From positions 128,001 through 192,000 of IMG/VR virus record IMGVR_UViG_3300050821_001527: a DNA stretch of 64,000 nt. One strand, 5' to 3'. Each line of letters opens with the position of its first letter. Position 1 is the first letter of the stretch. The translations under genes and the position numbers were made by a program. Origin of the DNA: a virus (Duplodnaviria; Caudoviricetes). A model generated the notes under the pieces. It saw nothing but the letters and a program-made list of their open reading frames with translations. It ran no database searches and was not told where the DNA came from. Shown here in pieces: positions 5,908 through 28,823 of this stretch.

Positions 5908-6435
5908 ATGAGCCACGAAAGACGTTCAGTATTGCAGGACTGGGTGATGGAATTGCCGTTCATGCAGCAGTCGGTATTGATTGCCGCCATGCGCGGAGCC
6001 GACGGCGTGAACAAGATGCACCCTTCAAAGTATTTGGGCCGCTGGCTTCGACGCTGCATTGTTATTTCAGCTTTTGACCGCAAAGCCTTGGATGACCCTT
6101 ACTATCCCGGTGGAGGCTCCTATACCGGCCCTAGCGTGACTGGTGACGAACTGGGTGCCTCTACGGATTGGGAAAAGCCCATGAATAAAAAGGTCAAGGC
6201 TTACATGGACAGCATGGATGAAATTCCGCTCCATTATCACTTGCACCTGCTTCACGCGGTTGAAATTTTGGGATACAAGCATTCCAACGAGCGAGTCAGG
6301 GCTTGGTGGTTACAGACTTACAAGGCTCTCGCGCACGACATGCACTTGGCGGTGGAAACCGAAGAACAACTCAATGCCCGCCTGAACGATAACGAGTCCG
6401 ACTGGCGCAAGGACGAAACCAGATTTAAGAAATGA
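5908..6435 (+). CDS. Hypothetical protein
   Basis: ~175 aa ORF after promoter. Confidence 0.75.
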   Translation: MSHERRSVLQDWVMELPFMQQSVLIAAMRGADGVNKMHPSKYLGRWLRRCIVISAFDRKALDDPYYPGGGSYTGPSVTGDELGASTDWEKPMNKKVKAYMDSMDEIPLHYHLHLLHAVEILGYKHSNERVRAWWLQTYKALAHDMHLAVETEEQLNARLNDNESDWRKDETRFKK

Positions 6436-6644
6436 ACCTCCCACACAAAACCGCCCTGCACGAAATTTCGCTTAACCTTTCTACCCCCAATATGGGAGAG
6501 CGCGAGAAGTCGTGGCGCAAATTCGCCGCAGGCATGGAGAATTTTATCATGGGACTCCGCAAGCCCTGCGAATACGCGGTTCCATGCAAGTTTTGCGATA
6601 CGTGTAAAACCAATAGCGAGATTGAATCATTTCTGGCCAAGTAA
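6432..6644 (+). CDS. Hypothetical protein
   Basis: Overlap chain. Confidence 0.6.
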   Translation: MNLPHKTALHEISLNLSTPNMGEREKSWRKFAAGMENFIMGLRKPCEYAVPCKFCDTCKTNSEIESFLAK

Positions 6645-6645
6645 A

Positions 6646-6861
6646 ATGCACCTATGGGAAATATATTGGTTGTGTGCCGCGCTCCTGACTTGGATGTTTG
6701 AGTTAAGGGCTTACCTTGCTGGTGAATACGGCCAGCAGAGGGATATGTTCAATATTGACTACGAGAAGGTAGGGATAATGGGTGTGTGCCTGTTCTTCTT
6801 TTGCTTGGTGTTTTGGTGGACTTTTTGGTTGGCGATGATTTTCGGTAGGATTAAGCGATGA
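6646..6861 (+). CDS. Hypothetical membrane protein
   Basis: Two hydrophobic segments. Confidence 0.6.
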   Translation: MHLWEIYWLCAALLTWMFELRAYLAGEYGQQRDMFNIDYEKVGIMGVCLFFFCLVFWWTFWLAMIFGRIKR

Positions 6862-7676
6862 AAACGAAATGGATAATTGAAAACTTCACGGATTCCGAAG
6901 ACTACCGCGAGCTTATTCAGGCGGTGAAAGATTCGGGACGCTCCTGCTTTGTCATTGATAAAAACAATCATTTTGACTTTGACCCGTCCGGGTTCGCAGA
7001 GAACGACAGGGTTATTGTCCAAGGCTCTATCCAGATGACAAAGAACATCGGAAGTCGTCTGCCCAAAGGTTGTTTTCCTGTCGCTTTTTCTTCGTGGGAG
7101 AACTATCTATGCACGTCCTATTACCCGCATTTCCGCAGATTTTTGTTCAACGATAATCATGCGGTTACGACTGTAGCCAATCTGAAAGAGGACAAGTTCT
7201 ACTTTTACAAGACATTCGGCAAGGACGCCCTTATCTTTATTCGTCCCGACAGCGGGGAAAAAAGCTTTTCTGGCCAGCTTCTCGACCTGCAAGATTTTGA
7301 TAGGTTTTGGAAGGGCGCGGTTCATGGCGGCGGAAACTGTGCCGACAATGACACTATTTTCGTTTCAACCCCCAAGAATATCAACGGGGAATGGAGATTC
7401 GTGTGCGCTCCGGGTGAGATTATCGCTTACTCGACTTATCAATACCAAGGCCAACGCACTCTTATTCCTTCCGCTCCAACCGGGGCCATTGATAAGTGCA
7501 AGGAAATTTTGGCCGTGGGCTACTATCCCGACCCGATTTTTTGCGTGGATATTTGCGAGGACGCGGACGGTAATTTCTGGCTGCTTGAACTTACGTCGTT
7601 CTCGTCTGCCGGACTATATGCTTCCGACAAAAGAAAAATTGTCGCTAAGGTCAATGAAATCGTAGAATCATTATGA
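6858..7676 (+). CDS. ATP-grasp protein (DUF4343/R2K-like)
   Basis: IFIRPDSGEKSFSG, EWRFV, VDI...LLELTSFSSAGLY. Confidence 0.8.
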   Translation: MKTKWIIENFTDSEDYRELIQAVKDSGRSCFVIDKNNHFDFDPSGFAENDRVIVQGSIQMTKNIGSRLPKGCFPVAFSSWENYLCTSYYPHFRRFLFNDNHAVTTVANLKEDKFYFYKTFGKDALIFIRPDSGEKSFSGQLLDLQDFDRFWKGAVHGGGNCADNDTIFVSTPKNINGEWRFVCAPGEIIAYSTYQYQGQRTLIPSAPTGAIDKCKEILAVGYYPDPIFCVDICEDADGNFWLLELTSFSSAGLYASDKRKIVAKVNEIVESL

Positions 7677-22100: not shown

Positions 22101-23192
22101 ATGAACAACACCGACCAAGAATACTTCCGTCTCCTGCGCCTTATCCTCGATAATGGCCGCACGAAAGTCAATCGAACCGGCGTGGATACCATCGGCGTTT
22201 TCGGCGCACAGGCGCGTTTCAATCTCGCCGAAGGCTTCCCACTTCTAACTACCAAGAAAGTCTTTCTCAAGGCCATCATCCACGAACTGCTCTGGTTCAT
22301 CAAGGGCGACACGAATATCAAGTATCTGGTTGATAACGACGTTCACATTTGGGACGAGTGGGCCTACAAGCGTTTCTGCGATGCTCAAAAAGGGACGGAC
22401 GGAGTTATTACGAAAGCCCTTATTGACCAAAAGCAATTCATTCAGAATATCAAGGAATTTCCTGAATTTGCCGCTAGATGGGGCGACCTTGGAGAAGGCA
22501 CCTACGGAGGCATGTGGAGGGCGTTTCCTTACTACCGCGAATACGATGACGGCGAGGATGGTTCCGACTGCGCTACTATACAACGCGCCCATGAAACGAT
22601 TGACCAACTCAAAAAAGTCGTGGATAAGCTGAAAACCAATCCCGATGACCGTCGCATGATTGTCAGCGCGTGGCATCCTTACTGGGTTGACCATTGTGCC
22701 CTACCGCCGTGTCATTGTCTTTTCCACTTCAACACGGAAGAACTAACCGTCTCTGAGCGACTGGACGTGTATCACAAGGGAGGCTACAACTTGCTTCCGA
22801 AGTATCTTGGCGCGGACGATGCCACGGCGCACAAGAATCTGGATGATATTGGCGTTCCCAAACGCAGGCTTAACTGCTTGCTCTATCAACGCTCCTGTGA
22901 CACGTTCTTAGGCGTTCCATTCAATATCGCCAGCTACGCGCTCTTGACGAGCATGATTGCCAAGGTGGTCAACATGGTTCCCGGCGAGTTTGTCCACACC
23001 TACGGCGACTTGCACATTTACAAGAACCATCTGGAACAGGTCAAGGAACAGCTTTCGCGCAAACCGTTCGACAAGCTTCCTACCTTGAAACTGAACCCCG
23101 CCGTCACCGATTTATTTCAATATAAATACGAGGACATTTCAGTCATGGGATATGAATGTCATCCCGCCATCAAAGCCCCCATCGCTGTCTAA
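22101..23192 (+). CDS. thyA: Thymidylate synthase
   Basis: [44 protein letters not shown]. Confidence 0.97.
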
Positions 23193-23193
23193 T

Positions 23194-23648
23194 ATGAAAA
23201 CCAACGAACGTAAAGACGCGGAAGAAATCGTCAGAAGGCTGCGCGAGCGCAATCCCGCAGCTTTCAATGGACTCATAGACGAGAACATTACATTGGAGGA
23301 CTTCGCTGAAATAGTCATTGTCCAATACAAGGCTTTCAACGCGGGAGCCAAAGAGTTGAGGCCCGACAAGAACGTAAAGGTTCCAGATTACGTTTGGTCA
23401 ACCGAAGGCTACGACCCAAGCAGATTGCCAAAATGAAATTCGACCACGAACATTGCGATAAGTGCGAGAAAGTAACCCCGCACTACAACGGGAAGTGCGG
23501 CCCCTGTGAAACGGCAGCGGGAAACAAGGCCCGCCGCCTGCACTTTGCTTCCCTAAAGGGCTTGACAGTTGAGGAAAGGCTTGATAGGATTGAAAAGTGG
23601 CAATACGAAATGCAAATCAGTCCCCCGTGGATTGAGCCAACCTACTAA
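23194..23648 (+). CDS. Two short hypothetical ORFs (23194-23436, 23433-23648)
   Basis: Overlap chain; second has CDKC/CGPC. Confidence 0.55.
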
Positions 23649-23857
23649 ACCATGAACTACCGAAACGAAATACCTGCTGGAATCCCCCGAAATAAGACCG
23701 AACTGCGAGAAATGCAAGCCGCCCAAGTCAAGACCCCTCCGCTTACGGCTGGATTGGTTATTTTGGGTGCGGCGTTCGTCATTTTACTGGGCGTTTTGAC
23801 GATTATCCACATGGTTCGCTAATACGAATCAATAAAATTCAATAAATTGAAATAAAT

Positions 23858-24361
23858 ATGGCAACTTTTCGCGCAATCGTGGCAATGGGTGAAAATCGTG
23901 AAATCGGCGAGGGAGACAAGATTCCTTGGCGTCTCAAGGCCGATATGCAGCACTTTAAACGCACCACCATGAACGGCCATGTCCTTTTTGGCCGCAAGAC
24001 GTTTGATTGCCTGCCCAATAAGACCCTCGTAAACCGCACCATTTGGGTTCTGACGCGCCGTAACCCTGACGGATGGACTAAGACGACCAACCACGGTCTG
24101 ACGCTCTCCTGCGCCACCAACGTCGTGGAATCGCTATCCCAGCTTCCCGACGGACAGGACTATTGGGTTTGTGGAGGTTCTCAAATCTATTCCCTGCTCT
24201 TGGACAAGCTGGACGAGGTAGTCTGCACCCATGTTTCGGGTAAATTTTCCCAAGCGGACGCCCACATGTCTGCATTCGAGCATCTTTTCGCCCGAAAAGA
24301 CATCTTGACTACCGGCGAAGGATACAGTATCGTCAGGTATTATGATAAGATTACTGGTTAG
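23858..24361 (+). CDS. folA: Dihydrofolate reductase
   Basis: IVAMGENREIG...IPWRLKADMQHFK...GRKTF...VCGGSQIY. Confidence 0.95.
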   Translation: MATFRAIVAMGENREIGEGDKIPWRLKADMQHFKRTTMNGHVLFGRKTFDCLPNKTLVNRTIWVLTRRNPDGWTKTTNHGLTLSCATNVVESLSQLPDGQDYWVCGGSQIYSLLLDKLDEVVCTHVSGKFSQADAHMSAFEHLFARKDILTTGEGYSIVRYYDKITG

Positions 24362-24500
24362 AATTTTCTGCGCTTTAGTTTTTGGGAAGCAGCCCCATTT
24401 TCATACGTGGGGCAAATGGGAAACTGAATGCCGCAGCACTTGGTCAAGACAGCATCGCCAATGTCGCACCTGTGGCAAGGAACAATCTAGGATATTTTAA
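24342..24500 (+). CDS. Small HxWxKW...RxCxxCG protein (52 aa, not in ORF track)
   Basis: Manual translation ...HTWGKW...RQCRTCGKEQ. Confidence 0.6.
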   Translation: MIRLLVRIFCALVFGKQPHFHTWGKWETECRSTWSRQHRQCRTCGKEQSRIF

Positions 24501-24636
24501 GTGTTGAAGATGGCCCTGCCGATGCCTTTGACGAAGAACCAAAGGTTATTCCAGCGCAGGACGAGAATGCTCAATAGGAAGCATTGAACATTGAGTAGCA
24601 AACTTTCGAGACGTTCGTTCACTTATTATATTACAC

Positions 24637-25227
24637 ATGGATGGCCTGAAAAACAGAACTGGTTGGCAGAATGCCAGCAGCCTCAAAGCTTCCGCGACTG
24701 AAAGCAGCTTCGCACAGGCCATGAGCGCGGCTTTCGTGGGAACGGATTTTCGTTTGAGGCATAAGCCAAGGGAGTTCCGAAACATCTATCTACAAATTCC
24801 CTTGGATGCAGCCATCGCCGCCTCCATTTATCAGCCGATTAAGCCTTACAAGCACGGTGTTATTCCCGACTATGCCATTGACAACATTGTCACTGGGAAA
24901 ACGCTCTACGTCGAAGTCAAACGTCAGGATGGCTGGGTGGAGGGAAAGACCAGTTCGGCAGGGAGAGGAAACGCCCATGAAAGGTCTTGTAAATTCTTTA
25001 CGCCCGGATTGCTGCAAATTTTAAGGGCCAAAGGGAAGCTGGATGATTCAGTTTTGCCGTTTTGGGCCGTATATCAGGGAGATATTGCGCGTGACCCGAA
25101 GCGTGTCCGTGAAATCCATTGCTGGTTCAGCGGGTATTCCAACCACTTCTTTCTGTGGCAGGACATAAATATCTCGCATCCTTTAGTTACCCATTTTCAA
25201 ACCAAACTGAAACAAATCCTCGAATGA
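24637..25227 (+). CDS. munIR: Type II restriction endonuclease, MunI-like (CAATTG); no adjacent methyltransferase
   Basis: PDYAI..EVKRQDGWVEGK..SAGRGNAHERSCKFFTPGLL..LPFW..GDI.RDPKRVREI matches recalled R.MunI. Confidence 0.88.
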   Translation: MDGLKNRTGWQNASSLKASATESSFAQAMSAAFVGTDFRLRHKPREFRNIYLQIPLDAAIAASIYQPIKPYKHGVIPDYAIDNIVTGKTLYVEVKRQDGWVEGKTSSAGRGNAHERSCKFFTPGLLQILRAKGKLDDSVLPFWAVYQGDIARDPKRVREIHCWFSGYSNHFFLWQDINISHPLVTHFQTKLKQILE

Positions 25228-26798
25228 ATCCCATCCCTCTAATCCCGTTCGACAAACCCGAGTGGCGCGTGGTCAAAGAAAAGCACGTCCGCTACAAGAT
25301 TGTCAACTACAAGAAATATTACCAGCGTTCGCCCGGAACACCGCGCAACGGCAAGACGATTTTCGTTTATGACTTCGGTGACGGGTTGAACGTCATTCGC
25401 ATGAGCTATTCCGCCTCCAAGGGTGCAACCGGAGTGGAATTCGCCCGCCAAGGAGCCGACACGTTTCGTTTGCGTGTCAGGAACGGCAGGCTGGTCATTT
25501 GGAAAACCCAACTTACCCCGGACAGGGGCCGCATCGTCCGCAATGTTTCCAACCGCATTGACGACCTGAAAAGAATTTTGCTGAACTTTGGCAATAAGAA
25601 TACCTATTCCAAACCTTTCCAGAAGCCTGAACCAAAGCCTAAGCAGGAACAGTCCGATGAAATCCCCCTGAGCCACAGAATCTCCGAGCTTATGGACAGT
25701 AGTAGCGACTGGCCAGAAGTTACGAAAACCCAAGTGCGTGTGATTAAGTCTGTAAACGCACGTCTGAACAAGATTTTGATTCACTTCCTCAAGCGTCACG
25801 GAATCAAGTTCAAATACGGCAGGGACTTCTTCGAGAATCTGCGTGTCGCCTGCTATCCCTTCACGGAAGGTTTCGCCCTCAAGAGCAATTCGCTCAACGC
25901 GGTTTACTCGCGCCATTTTATTCACGGGGACATTAAGCATGTAGTCAAGAAATGCTTCGGCACGGACGGCGGAAAGCTTACCCGCATGGTCTGCGAACGA
26001 ATCCGTAAAGACCAAAACTTCGATGTTCTGTGTCTAGGCGCGGTCATCAAGGGACTCATGCCCGTGGATTATGTCTATCAGGCTTTGGAGAAGGCCAACG
26101 TCACCAAAATCAAGGACGTTGACAAAAATCGAGTAGGCGTCAAATTGAACGTCGTCAGGGCATTACTCAAGAACTACAACGCCTCCCGCGTTTTGAAGCT
26201 CGTTCTCGACGAGAATTTCGGAGAATGGTATTTCAACGACTCCATCATCATTTACGGCCAGCGTAAAGCCGAGCCTGACTTCCAGATTATCGAAAAGCCG
26301 AAAAGCTGGCAGGAAATACACGACTATCTCGCGCCCCGCCGTCTAGCAGCTTCCGTCAAGACCGAAGAAATGGAACTGCCCGTCTCGCCGAAATACAAGG
26401 AGATAGACGGATTGGAATACGAAGGATTCAAGATAGAAGTCCCCAAGCACACGAACGACCTTGTTTCCTACGCCAACCAGATGCAGAACTGTATTCGCTG
26501 GTATGGCTCACAGGTAGTCGCCAAGCAATGCAACATCCTTGGTATCTACAAGGAGGATAAGCTGGTTTACAACATTTCGATTCGCAGCAAGGTCATTGAC
26601 CAGTTCAGGGGTAAGTGTAATTCCGAACCAGACCCGGAGGATAAGTCAAAGATTCTCAAGGCTCTCTTGGAGAAGGGAATCATTTCCTCGCTACCCGACG
26701 ACAGACGAGACTCTTTGGCTCTGGCCCGCGCAGTTATCGCCCCGCCCGTCCCGGTTCCCCTTGTAGTGGCAAACGACGACGGAGGCGTTCCATTCTAA
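25224..26798 (+). CDS. PcfJ domain-containing protein
   Basis: C-terminal VPK...L..YANQMQNCI..Y...QFRGKCN. Confidence 0.8.
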   Translation: MNPIPLIPFDKPEWRVVKEKHVRYKIVNYKKYYQRSPGTPRNGKTIFVYDFGDGLNVIRMSYSASKGATGVEFARQGADTFRLRVRNGRLVIWKTQLTPDRGRIVRNVSNRIDDLKRILLNFGNKNTYSKPFQKPEPKPKQEQSDEIPLSHRISELMDSSSDWPEVTKTQVRVIKSVNARLNKILIHFLKRHGIKFKYGRDFFENLRVACYPFTEGFALKSNSLNAVYSRHFIHGDIKHVVKKCFGTDGGKLTRMVCERIRKDQNFDVLCLGAVIKGLMPVDYVYQALEKANVTKIKDVDKNRVGVKLNVVRALLKNYNASRVLKLVLDENFGEWYFNDSIIIYGQRKAEPDFQIIEKPKSWQEIHDYLAPRRLAASVKTEEMELPVSPKYKEIDGLEYEGFKIEVPKHTNDLVSYANQMQNCIRWYGSQVVAKQCNILGIYKEDKLVYNISIRSKVIDQFRGKCNSEPDPEDKSKILKALLEKGIISSLPDDRRDSLALARAVIAPPVPVPLVVANDDGGVPF

Positions 26799-27265
26799 TG
26801 CAAAACAAAACATTCGGTTTCCAAACCCAAATGGCGATAGGCGACAAGGGAGAGCAGGACTTCAAACAATACTACGCTCATCTAGGCCCGGTCAAAAGCG
26901 AGGATAGGGCGATTGACTTCATTCTGGCCGATGGCACGACTGTCGAACTAAAATCCGACAGCTACCCGATGGAAAAGACCGAGAACTTTTTCATGGAAAC
27001 TTTGAGCGATACCAAGTCCGGCAAGCTTGGGGGTGTCTTTAGGGCAAGGAATGATAAAATTCATTTTTTTGTATATTATTACCCCGCCAACAAGACGTTC
27101 TTCTGGTTCGAGGTTGAAAAACTTTGTGCCGAAGTCGAAAGGCTGATTGGCACCGGAAAATACAGGGTCAAGTCCATCAAAAACAGGTCATGGACTACCG
27201 AGGGTTACGCCCTGTCCCGCAGCCTGTTCGAGAAGGTCATGCTGAGAAAAGACGTTTTTCCTTGA
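26798..27265 (+). CDS. PD-(D/E)XK-like nuclease fold protein
   Basis: IDFIL...VELKSD...NFFME. Confidence 0.6.
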   Translation: MQNKTFGFQTQMAIGDKGEQDFKQYYAHLGPVKSEDRAIDFILADGTTVELKSDSYPMEKTENFFMETLSDTKSGKLGGVFRARNDKIHFFVYYYPANKTFFWFEVEKLCAEVERLIGTGKYRVKSIKNRSWTTEGYALSRSLFEKVMLRKDVFP

Positions 27266-27296: not shown

Positions 27297-28466
27297 ATGA
27301 AAATCTACGCCGAAAACACTCGCGTCCCAATCAAGTCTTGGTGTGAAAACCCGGAAGCCGGGGCTATCAAGCAGGCCGAGAACATGGCCAACCTGCCATT
27401 CACTTTCAGACACGTCGCCCTCATGCCCGACACCCATCAAGGCTTTGGTATGCCTATCGGTGGAGTTCTGGCTACCGATAACGTCATCATTCCGAACGCT
27501 GTCGGAGTTGACATTGGGTGCGGTATGTGTTCCATCGAATCCAACATCCAAACTTGGGACAGGGAACTGTTGACGGAAGCCATCAAGGAAATCCGCTACA
27601 ACGTTCCTGTCGGATTCAGCCGCCATCTTACCGCGAAGCCTGTGGACAAGCTGCCCGCCAGCACGTCCCCGAACGCCTACTATGAGAAGTTCCTTGAGCC
27701 GTCCCTGTTCCAACTCGGAACCTTGGGCGGCGGGAATCACTTCATCGAATTACAGAAGAACCCGAACGGAAATCTGTGCGTGATGATTCACTCTGGTAGC
27801 CGCAACATCGGGAAGCAGGTTGCCGACTATTACAACAAGCTCGCCCTCGCTCTGAACCAGCGTTATTTCAGTCAGGTCACGAAGGAAACCGACTTGGCGT
27901 TCCTGCCGCTTGACTCTGCCGAGGGTCAGGCTTACTTGGCGGAAATGACTTACTGTGTCGCGTTTGCCTTGGCGAACCGCATGGAAATGATGAACGCTTG
28001 CCAGCAAGCCATCTACAAGGTTTTCAAGCCTTTGCAACAGGTCGAGTTCACGAACTTCATCAACATTCCGCACAATTATGCGAAGGTTGAAAAGCACTTC
28101 GGCAAGGAAGTCGTCGTCCACCGCAAGGGCGCGACGAATGCCAGCGAGGGCGTCATTGGGCTAATCCCCGGCTCGCAGGGCACCAAGAGCTACGTGGTGC
28201 GCGGCAAGGGTAATCGTGAGAGCTTCGAGAGTTGCTCCCACGGCGCAGGCCGCAAGATGGGCCGCATGGTCGCCAAACGCACTCTGAACATCGAAGACGA
28301 GCAACGCAAGCTGGACGAACTTGGAGTCATTCATGCCGTCCGCGCCAACTCTGACTTGGACGAGGCTCCGGGTTCCTATAAGGACATTGACGTGGTTATG
28401 AGCGAGCAAACCGACCTGATTGACGTTATCGAAGAACGCACTCCTTTGGGAGTCGTGAAGGGGTAA
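27297..28466 (+). CDS. rtcB: RNA ligase RtcB
   Basis: MPDTHQG, VGVDIGCG, GTLGGGNHF, HSGSR, HRKGA, SHGAGR, DEAPGSYK. Confidence 0.97.
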   Translation: MKIYAENTRVPIKSWCENPEAGAIKQAENMANLPFTFRHVALMPDTHQGFGMPIGGVLATDNVIIPNAVGVDIGCGMCSIESNIQTWDRELLTEAIKEIRYNVPVGFSRHLTAKPVDKLPASTSPNAYYEKFLEPSLFQLGTLGGGNHFIELQKNPNGNLCVMIHSGSRNIGKQVADYYNKLALALNQRYFSQVTKETDLAFLPLDSAEGQAYLAEMTYCVAFALANRMEMMNACQQAIYKVFKPLQQVEFTNFINIPHNYAKVEKHFGKEVVVHRKGATNASEGVIGLIPGSQGTKSYVVRGKGNRESFESCSHGAGRKMGRMVAKRTLNIEDEQRKLDELGVIHAVRANSDLDEAPGSYKDIDVVMSEQTDLIDVIEERTPLGVVKG

Positions 28467-28823
28467 GGGGGCTATCCCCCATTTACGTTATGGGCTAATC
28501 GTGCTATGATGGAGTATGAAGTCAAAAATGAAAAAATTAGTCCATCAATGTTCAGCCGCAATATACGCGGCGACCAGCATTAAACCCGAGTTCACTGAAC
28601 TTGGGGAGTTCGTGTTATGGCAAATCGCGGTGGGTGTCGGCGATAAGGAGTCTTATCTCGACGCCCCGCGACCATGCCACAAAGACAGATAAATATGAGC
28701 AGACGATACAAGCAAGACGACGATACGACCCTGATGGGGATTGGGATGTTTTTCTTGTTCGTGGTTATCTCCTGAGTAGAAACCCTTGACACCAACCGAA
28801 AGCTGGGCTATTATTATAGAACG

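Follow-up and report, generated by a model that had tools for sequence, protein, structure and literature searches.

An uncultured jumbo phage from soil, with a genome of 203 kb, carries an intact gene for a MunI-family restriction endonuclease, no recognizable cognate methylase, and not a single copy of CAATTG, the site that the enzyme is predicted to cut. Restriction enzymes are host defenses tied to a methylase, being toxic alone. The best reading of the phage gene is that of a domesticated, offensive restriction enzyme, to which the phage is self-immune through the absence of the site and which would cut the DNA of the host or of co-infecting elements; taken together, the evidence makes this reading rather likely. 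Coordinates refer to the window, which is the whole 64 kb stretch of DNA that was analyzed (positions 128001–192000 of a single viral contig of 202,882 bp), unless they are given as genome positions. CheckV puts the completeness of the contig at ~91%, there is no terminal overlap, and open frames run off both ends.

24637–25227, plus strand: apparently solitary gene for a MunI-family type IIP restriction endonuclease, 196 aa, predicted site CAATTG (Pfam, PDB, model)

The translated ORF matches the Pfam family PF11407 (RestrictionMunI) over profile positions 8–192 of 193, with an E-value of 2.6e-61 and a score of 207 bits against a curated cut-off of 25 bits, and it matches the crystal structure of MunI (PDB 1D02) with an E-value of 1.4e-57. 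An earlier note, made from the letters of the window, had seen a MunI-like enzyme here from its signature motifs, and this identification is borne out. Identity to R.MunI and R.MfeI is 46–48% over the full length, and an AlphaFold2 model (pLDDT 79.6) has 1D02 as its best Foldseek match (TM 0.71, E 4.5e-18). The phage protein shares its fold, the PD...ExK triad and the segment R-G-N-A-H-E-R with these Mycoplasma enzymes (1D02; C^AATTG; PF11407). Its catalytic triad, PD78/E93/K95, is invariant in alignments of 18 and of 84 sequences, and D78, E93 and K95 align with D83, E98 and K100 of MunI, the PD-(D/E)XK catalytic residues; the numbering follows the 1D02 alignment, and position 83 of the PDB chain is an Ala, as a mutant was crystallized. 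The segment R110-G-N-A-H-E-R116 is identical to R115-G-N-A-H-E-R121 of MunI, which reportedly reads CAATTG, and is invariant across the family (18 sequences). None of the 33 strictly invariant columns of the 84-sequence alignment is changed in the phage protein, and at the 61 columns with a conservation of 95% or higher it deviates twice (G15S and F146Y), a level within the spread of the other members. This is a bona fide and apparently active MunI homologue, predicted to be a homodimeric PD-(D/E)XK endonuclease.

The surroundings of the gene are quite unlike those of R.MunI and R.MfeI. An MT-A70 methylase, detected with a local HMM, lies within 1.5 kb of MunI in 84 of 87 cellular and viral homologue loci, and the layout in close cellular homologues is an HTH controller gene, R.MunI and a convergent MT-A70 methylase, with an HTH_3 gene directly upstream of R.MunI. 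The phage copy sits in a lytic phage operon without either partner, so that the two marks of a MunI-type restriction-modification (RM) system, an adjacent MT-A70 methylase and an upstream C protein, are both missing from the locus. Neither flank holds a methyltransferase ORF, as the earlier note had observed, the neighbors being genes for DHFR, a 52-aa ORF, a PcfJ-like protein, a 155-aa ORF and RtcB; no HTH controller was found upstream, where the ORFs, of 52, 56, 84 and 94 aa, match nothing in Pfam or PHROGs. The search for a cognate methyltransferase was then extended to all of the ~91% of the genome in hand, and found none. The local MT-A70 HMM has no match anywhere in the 202,882 bp contig, six-frame searches of the phage genome with PF01555, PF00145, PF02086, PF05063, PF02384 and PF05869 gave zero matches, a six-frame search with the cognate methylase protein as query gave none either, and a scan of the genome for the motif (D/N/S)PP(Y/F/W/H) returned no plausible occurrence. 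A Pfam screen of 202 ORFs of 90–460 aa detected MunI as the sole restriction-enzyme family, and the only methyltransferase folds among them are of the small-molecule type, in a glycan locus. Within the sequenced ~91% of the genome, MunI is solitary. Four MunI homologues on other viral contigs have the same methylase as the cellular systems, and CAATTG counts there are normal. One IMG/VR contig listed as 'viral' (L001:1058-1663) carries the canonical system: it encodes a protein near-identical to the crystallized Mycoplasma MunI, with Asp at position 83, and an MT-A70-type methylase is found within 1.5 kb of the gene.

CAATTG is absent from the window, where shuffled sequences give 27.1 ± 5.5 matches on both strands, and from the entire 202,882 bp contig, where Markov models of orders 1–4 predict 47–106 copies; the claim of the earlier note that the segment was free of the site therefore holds well beyond the segment, and the exact count that it called for lies far below expectation. 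Its tally of roughly 40 CAATT pentamers was too low, with 51 on the plus strand of the window and 115 on both strands, but it was right that the next base is always A, C or T, and that GAATTG, AAATTG, TAATTG and GAATTC are present. Genome-wide, CAATT occurs 447 times on both strands and is never followed by G (P of zero ~1e-23). The shortage is equally evident at the codon level: the 169 Gln-Leu dipeptides include no CAA-TTG spelling (21.9 expected), and over the three reading frames there are no CAATTG where about 50 are expected, indicating that the site was lost through synonymous codon choice. TTCGAA and CCATGG are avoided at the codon level in the same way, while GAATTC and AAGCTT are not. 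The recognition site of the enzyme is thus missing from its carrier far below chance, as in a solitary enzyme protected by site absence, and a genome without CAATTG needs no methylase for self-protection, which supports that part of the earlier proposal.

CAATTG shares its fate with many other sites, more than 70 restriction specificities in all having been erased from the 203 kb genome. Hexamer palindromes are at exactly zero in 45 of 64 cases, and shorter motifs are at or near zero: GATC (0 versus 676 expected), GTAC (1 versus 476), GGWCC (0 versus 442) and CCWGG (1 versus 415). The sequences GWGCWC, GRGCYC, GTMKAC, RGGNCCY, GGTCTC (BsaI) and GCTCTTC (SapI) are at zero, as are split palindromes of the BglI, PflMI, EcoNI, AhdI, PshAI, BsaBI, DraIII, AlwNI, Tth111I, Bsu36I and BlpI types. 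The control words GAAN4TTC, GCN7GC, GANTC, GCNGC, GGATG, CGTCTC, GAATTC and AAGCTT are normal. In an unbiased enumeration, 44 of the 62 hexamer palindromes that should occur 15 times or more are missing, versus 3% of non-palindromic hexamers, and 17 split palindromes of the form XXX-N(1-9)-rc(XXX) are at zero versus one of ~18,000 non-palindromic split controls, so that type II-like palindromes have been lost selectively relative to the controls. Nineteen hexamer palindromes are retained, including AAATTT, ATATAT, TATATA, TAATTA, TAGCTA, TTGCAA and CTATAG; these are not known to be recognized by any enzyme, and a literature check of this point gave nothing.

The phage DNA is probably unmodified, since PurZ and TGT/DpdA were not found in the phage genome, ThyA is paired with DHFR as expected of ordinary dTMP synthesis, and the purge itself implies cleavable sites; the sites are probably missing as they would be cut. 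Protection via base hypermodification was rejected on the same grounds. The idea that many unseen restriction enzymes of the phage itself lie behind the purge was also rejected, there being one restriction-enzyme family among 202 ORFs and a shared purge in relatives that lack MunI. The purge is best explained by the pressure of host RM systems.

The relatives of the phage allow the purge and the gene to be placed in order. Nineteen relatives found through the terminase (TerL, 53–76% identity; GC 31–42%) show only mild palindrome depletion, and in them CAATTG occurs at about the expected frequency. Two relatives found through the PcfJ-like gene, L114 and L115 (43–47% identity; GC 40–42%), came from metagenome_contigs; viral_contigs gave no relatives of this gene with either a single sequence or an alignment as query. 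GATC, GGWCC and CCWGG are at zero in both, and the forbidden palindromes number nine versus 80 expected in one and nine versus 70 expected in the other. L114 and L115 share nearly the whole purge, and the terminase relatives do not. The gene backbone of L114 and L115 is YopX-ThyX-(small ORFs)-PcfJ-like-RtcB, with ThyX directly preceding the PcfJ-like gene and with neither DHFR nor MunI. In the phage, ThyA, DHFR and MunI fill that junction, and the identical gene and gene order are found on seven contigs from several samples. Since relatives without MunI share the purge, the purge is older than the gene, and since their backbone lacks it, MunI is a lineage-specific insertion. The same junction shows a non-orthologous replacement, with ThyA and DHFR at 22101–24361 in the phage and ThyX at L114:2365-3258 and L115:4664-5557.

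The suggestion of the earlier note that the phage had purged CAATTG on account of its enzyme does not stand in that form, given that more than 70 specificities are gone and that the MunI-less L114 and L115 share nearly the whole purge. A weaker version survives: these relatives retain three CAATTG in 18 kb (two in L114 and one in L115, versus 11.6 expected), about one per 6 kb, while the carrier of the enzyme has none in 203 kb. This contrast fits an enzyme that completed the purge of its own site, but CCATGG, CTTAAG, CGCGCG and TCGCGA show the same contrast between relatives and carrier with no matching phage enzyme found, and so the link between enzyme and purge is not established. The gene has been shaped like its surroundings: it contains none of the forbidden sites, of which seven homologue genes have 3–9 each, and in GC (0.49) and GC3 (0.55) it equals the genome means, from which it follows that the gene has had the time, or has been under selection strong enough, for such recoding. 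Among GenBank phages, a search for near-identical copies of the region came back empty, and no relative of the terminase was found in GenBank phages or GTDB genomes, so that it offers no host clue. One further contig, which carries P0124 and has the same Thy-PcfJ backbone, shows a weak C5 DNA-methylase match beside a dCMP deaminase (genes at 6402-7028); in this clade, methylation and site purge may thus take turns as means against restriction.

The features around the MunI gene, which fall within a co-oriented block running from ThyA (22101) to RtcB (28466) except for two on the opposite strand, are as follows.

22101–23192, plus strand: ThyA (Pfam Thymidylat_synt, E 4e-104)
23858–24361, plus strand: DHFR (Pfam DHFR_1, E 9e-31), with small ORFs between ThyA and DHFR
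24497–24622, minus strand: candidate 41-aa hydrophobic ORF, divergent from MunI, with a GTG start 4 nt past the control motif
24627–24636, minus strand: putative control motif GTGTAATATA (exact copy), abutting the MunI ATG and facing the opposite way
25224–26798, plus strand: PcfJ-like gene, 524 aa (Pfam PF14284, E 5e-11)
26798–27265, plus strand: 155-aa ORF with a PD-(D/E)XK-like motif order, E19, D39, E50-x-K52 (read from the translation)
27297–28466, plus strand: RtcB RNA ligase (Pfam RtcB, E 4e-108), the last gene of the co-oriented block

The stop codon of MunI overlaps the ATG of the PcfJ-like gene (ATGA, 25224–27), implying that the two are translationally coupled, as judged from the overlap. 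The PcfJ-like gene is conserved beside RtcB in the relatives; its PHROGs matches are all of unknown function, and a literature search for PcfJ returned only C. elegans plasmid names. The 155-aa ORF that follows has no Pfam, PHROG or NCBIfam match, its ESM Atlas neighbors are clusters of hypothetical viral proteins, in one of which 18% of the members have NOV_C, and a single-sequence AlphaFold model was discarded (pLDDT 44); from its motif order it may be a second nuclease, lying between the PcfJ-like gene and RtcB. A terminator-like hairpin follows RtcB at 28467, and no sigma-70-like promoter is found directly upstream of MunI on its own strand. Soil metatranscriptome contigs match 24397–24771 and 24809–24959 at 100% identity, which lends weak support to transcription through the 5' end of MunI; they were assembled from two small libraries and may reflect DNA carry-over or transcripts of either strand, and the stretch 24960–26159, covered by none of them, is uninformative.

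The motif that abuts the MunI start belongs to a family of sites. The form GTGTAATAT(A/C) has eight exact copies in the genome, all intergenic, versus about 0.4 expected, and besides 24627–24636 (minus strand) the motif is found at 21 other sites in the genome, e.g., 4781 (minus), 44550 (plus), 113007 (plus), 138162 (plus) and 175192 (plus). Nine sites are followed, at a distance of exactly 4 nt, by an ATG with which an ORF of 111–208 aa begins, and at one further site the spacing is 5 nt and the ORF 558 aa. The motif is probably a phage promoter for leaderless or near-leaderless mRNAs, or else a fixed-distance initiation signal. The start of the 41-aa ORF has the same spacing as the real genes; no homologue or family was found for it, and it could encode a small membrane peptide or a nuclease modulator. 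Of the 301 ORFs of the whole genome only 18 have a Shine-Dalgarno 5-mer core upstream, and the upstream regions are A/T-rich, a hint that the host makes no use of Shine-Dalgarno sequences or that translation is leaderless. The phage also has a tmRNA (L013:118-501, genome about 108,618–109,001) with a tag that ends in ...GFAAFAMA and not the common ...ALAA. Neither the tag nor the missing Shine-Dalgarno usage is diagnostic of the host.

The window is rich in genes of nucleotide metabolism. Other ORFs that were assigned to this category by the Pfam screen are a dUTPase, a dCMP deaminase and a dCTP-deaminase-like protein; also present are a dATP/dGTP diphosphohydrolase N-domain (MazZ-like), a nucleoside 2-deoxyribosyltransferase, DUF4326 and SLOG/YAcAr proteins.

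The gene order has a functional counterpart in phage T4, where the annotated cluster reads frd-td-nrdA-nrdB-denA-rnlA and denA encodes endonuclease II, which starts the degradation of cytosine-containing DNA. In both phages an endonuclease gene stands between genes for dTMP/dNTP synthesis and a tRNA-repair RNA ligase. The likeness is one of functional order and of proposed role, that is, the breakdown of host DNA by an enzyme to which the phage's own DNA is immune, and homology is not claimed. Immunity in T4 comes from hydroxymethyl-cytosine, and in the phage described here it would come from site absence, if the inferred function of the enzyme is correct. No integrase, resolvase or serine recombinase was found in the phage genome. 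The phage is hence probably strictly lytic, and would pay no price for leaving the host chromosome unprotected.

For the domesticated, offensive enzyme favored here, the following course of events can be proposed. The gene would have been captured from a cellular MunI RM system without its MT-A70 methylase and HTH controller, into a phage whose DNA had been left without CAATTG by the older, clade-wide purge that host restriction systems drove, so that no methylase was required. It would be expressed within the ThyA-DHFR-MunI-PcfJ-like-RtcB block. During infection the enzyme would cleave unmethylated CAATTG, chiefly in the host chromosome, which could bring host shut-off and supply nucleotides for dTMP synthesis by the neighboring genes; the DNA of co-infecting phages and plasmids would be a secondary target. 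Judged by this gene context, the suggestion of the earlier note that the phage may use the enzyme to shred DNA of the host or of competitors is plausible. As a counterpoint to host DNA as target, MunI systems are common among soil bacteria, and a host with M.MunI would be immune.

The same counterpoint favors a role chiefly as a weapon against other phages or mobile elements, through superinfection exclusion or homing-like marker exclusion. Suitable targets exist, as CAATTG is borne by the terminase relatives and, in two copies and one, by L114 and L115, and the phage genome also encodes free-standing, homing-type nucleases of the GIY-YIG and HNH families (Pfam). Competitors grown in a host with M.MunI would, however, be methylated as well, and the MunI gene sits among nucleotide-metabolism genes in the same context as T4 denA, which leaves exclusion of rivals as an unlikely primary role.

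Less still speaks for a neutral passenger, that is, a host defense gene that is tolerated through the absence of its site, without a role in infection and perhaps poorly expressed or inactive. In favor of such a passenger, the nearest protein in a collection of 5.8 billion has 65% identity, with no closer phage copy, there is no PHROG and no NCBIfam model for the family, and 50,697 GenBank phage records contain one partial match only. A further point is the maximum-likelihood tree, in which the phage protein groups with environmental sequences in a clade of mixed phyla and has a long terminal branch (1.02 versus a median of 0.23). Most of the divergence falls in the N- and C-terminal thirds, which have 39–46% identity to the family consensus; the core with the catalytic and recognition residues retains 82–89%, and the branch can be read, on this pattern, as the fast evolution of a working enzyme and not as decay. 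Against a passenger stand the conserved residues, none of which is lost, the full recoding of the gene to the forbidden words and composition of the genome, the coupling to a conserved PcfJ-like gene, the recurrence of the identical gene in the same order on seven contigs, and the RNA-library contigs over its 5' part, and together they make this explanation improbable.

An ordinary RM system whose methylase was missed, either in the unsequenced ~9% of a contig that ends inside ORFs (about 91% complete) or in a family that was not recognized, is very improbable even with most phage ORFs lacking a family assignment and a weak C5 methylase match on a related contig, because the cognate MT-A70 gene is directly adjacent in 84 of 87 loci where the phage has unrelated, conserved backbone genes, six methyltransferase families and the (D/N/S)PP(Y/F/W/H) scan were negative across the genome, and with zero CAATTG a lytic phage would offer a methylase no site to protect.

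Solitary enzymes and site avoidance are each known, and what is seen here is their combination, not a new mechanism. PacI is cited in Ershova et al. (2012, PMC3488263) as a solitary restriction enzyme protected by site absence. As with the phage enzyme, for which none was found in the sequenced ~91% of the genome, R.PacI of Pseudomonas alcaligenes has no cognate methylase, and self-protection comes from the absence of the site from the carrier; unlike the phage enzyme, PacI is an HNH enzyme of a bacterium with an 8 bp site, the absence of which is nearly expected by chance, whereas a 6 bp site should occur about 50–100 times in 203 kb and its absence from the phage reflects active selection. 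Solitary restriction endonucleases have been counted in phages, with 12 in 831 genomes and without functional study (Oliveira et al. 2014, PMC4176335). The avoidance of restriction sites (palindromes) is a classic phage strategy (Rusinov et al. 2018, PMC6286503), and as in known cases the sites have been removed by synonymous recoding, but the breadth is far greater here, with a count of exactly zero for more than 70 specificities in 203 kb, and one of the avoided sites, CAATTG, is tied to an intact enzyme of the same genome, unlike in general avoidance.

A broader proposal, made tentatively, is that a lytic phage has turned a bacterial defense enzyme into a methylase-free weapon, with the site-scrubbed genome as the prerequisite and the completion of the CAATTG purge as the footprint of the enzyme. 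If this is true, the zero count in 203 kb, set against about one CAATTG per 6 kb in the MunI-less relatives, would be the mark that the enzyme has left on its own carrier, and phage genomes freed of restriction sites would be pre-adapted to carry any solitary restriction enzyme for use against the DNA of hosts or rivals, a general and undescribed route by which restriction enzymes change sides. A site-purged genome of this kind may also act as a readout of the restriction specificities that circulate among soil hosts. If the enzyme is active, the phage would represent a simple route from defense gene to phage weapon, and a natural example of discrimination between self and non-self that is achieved through the recoding of a genome and not through the modification of its DNA.
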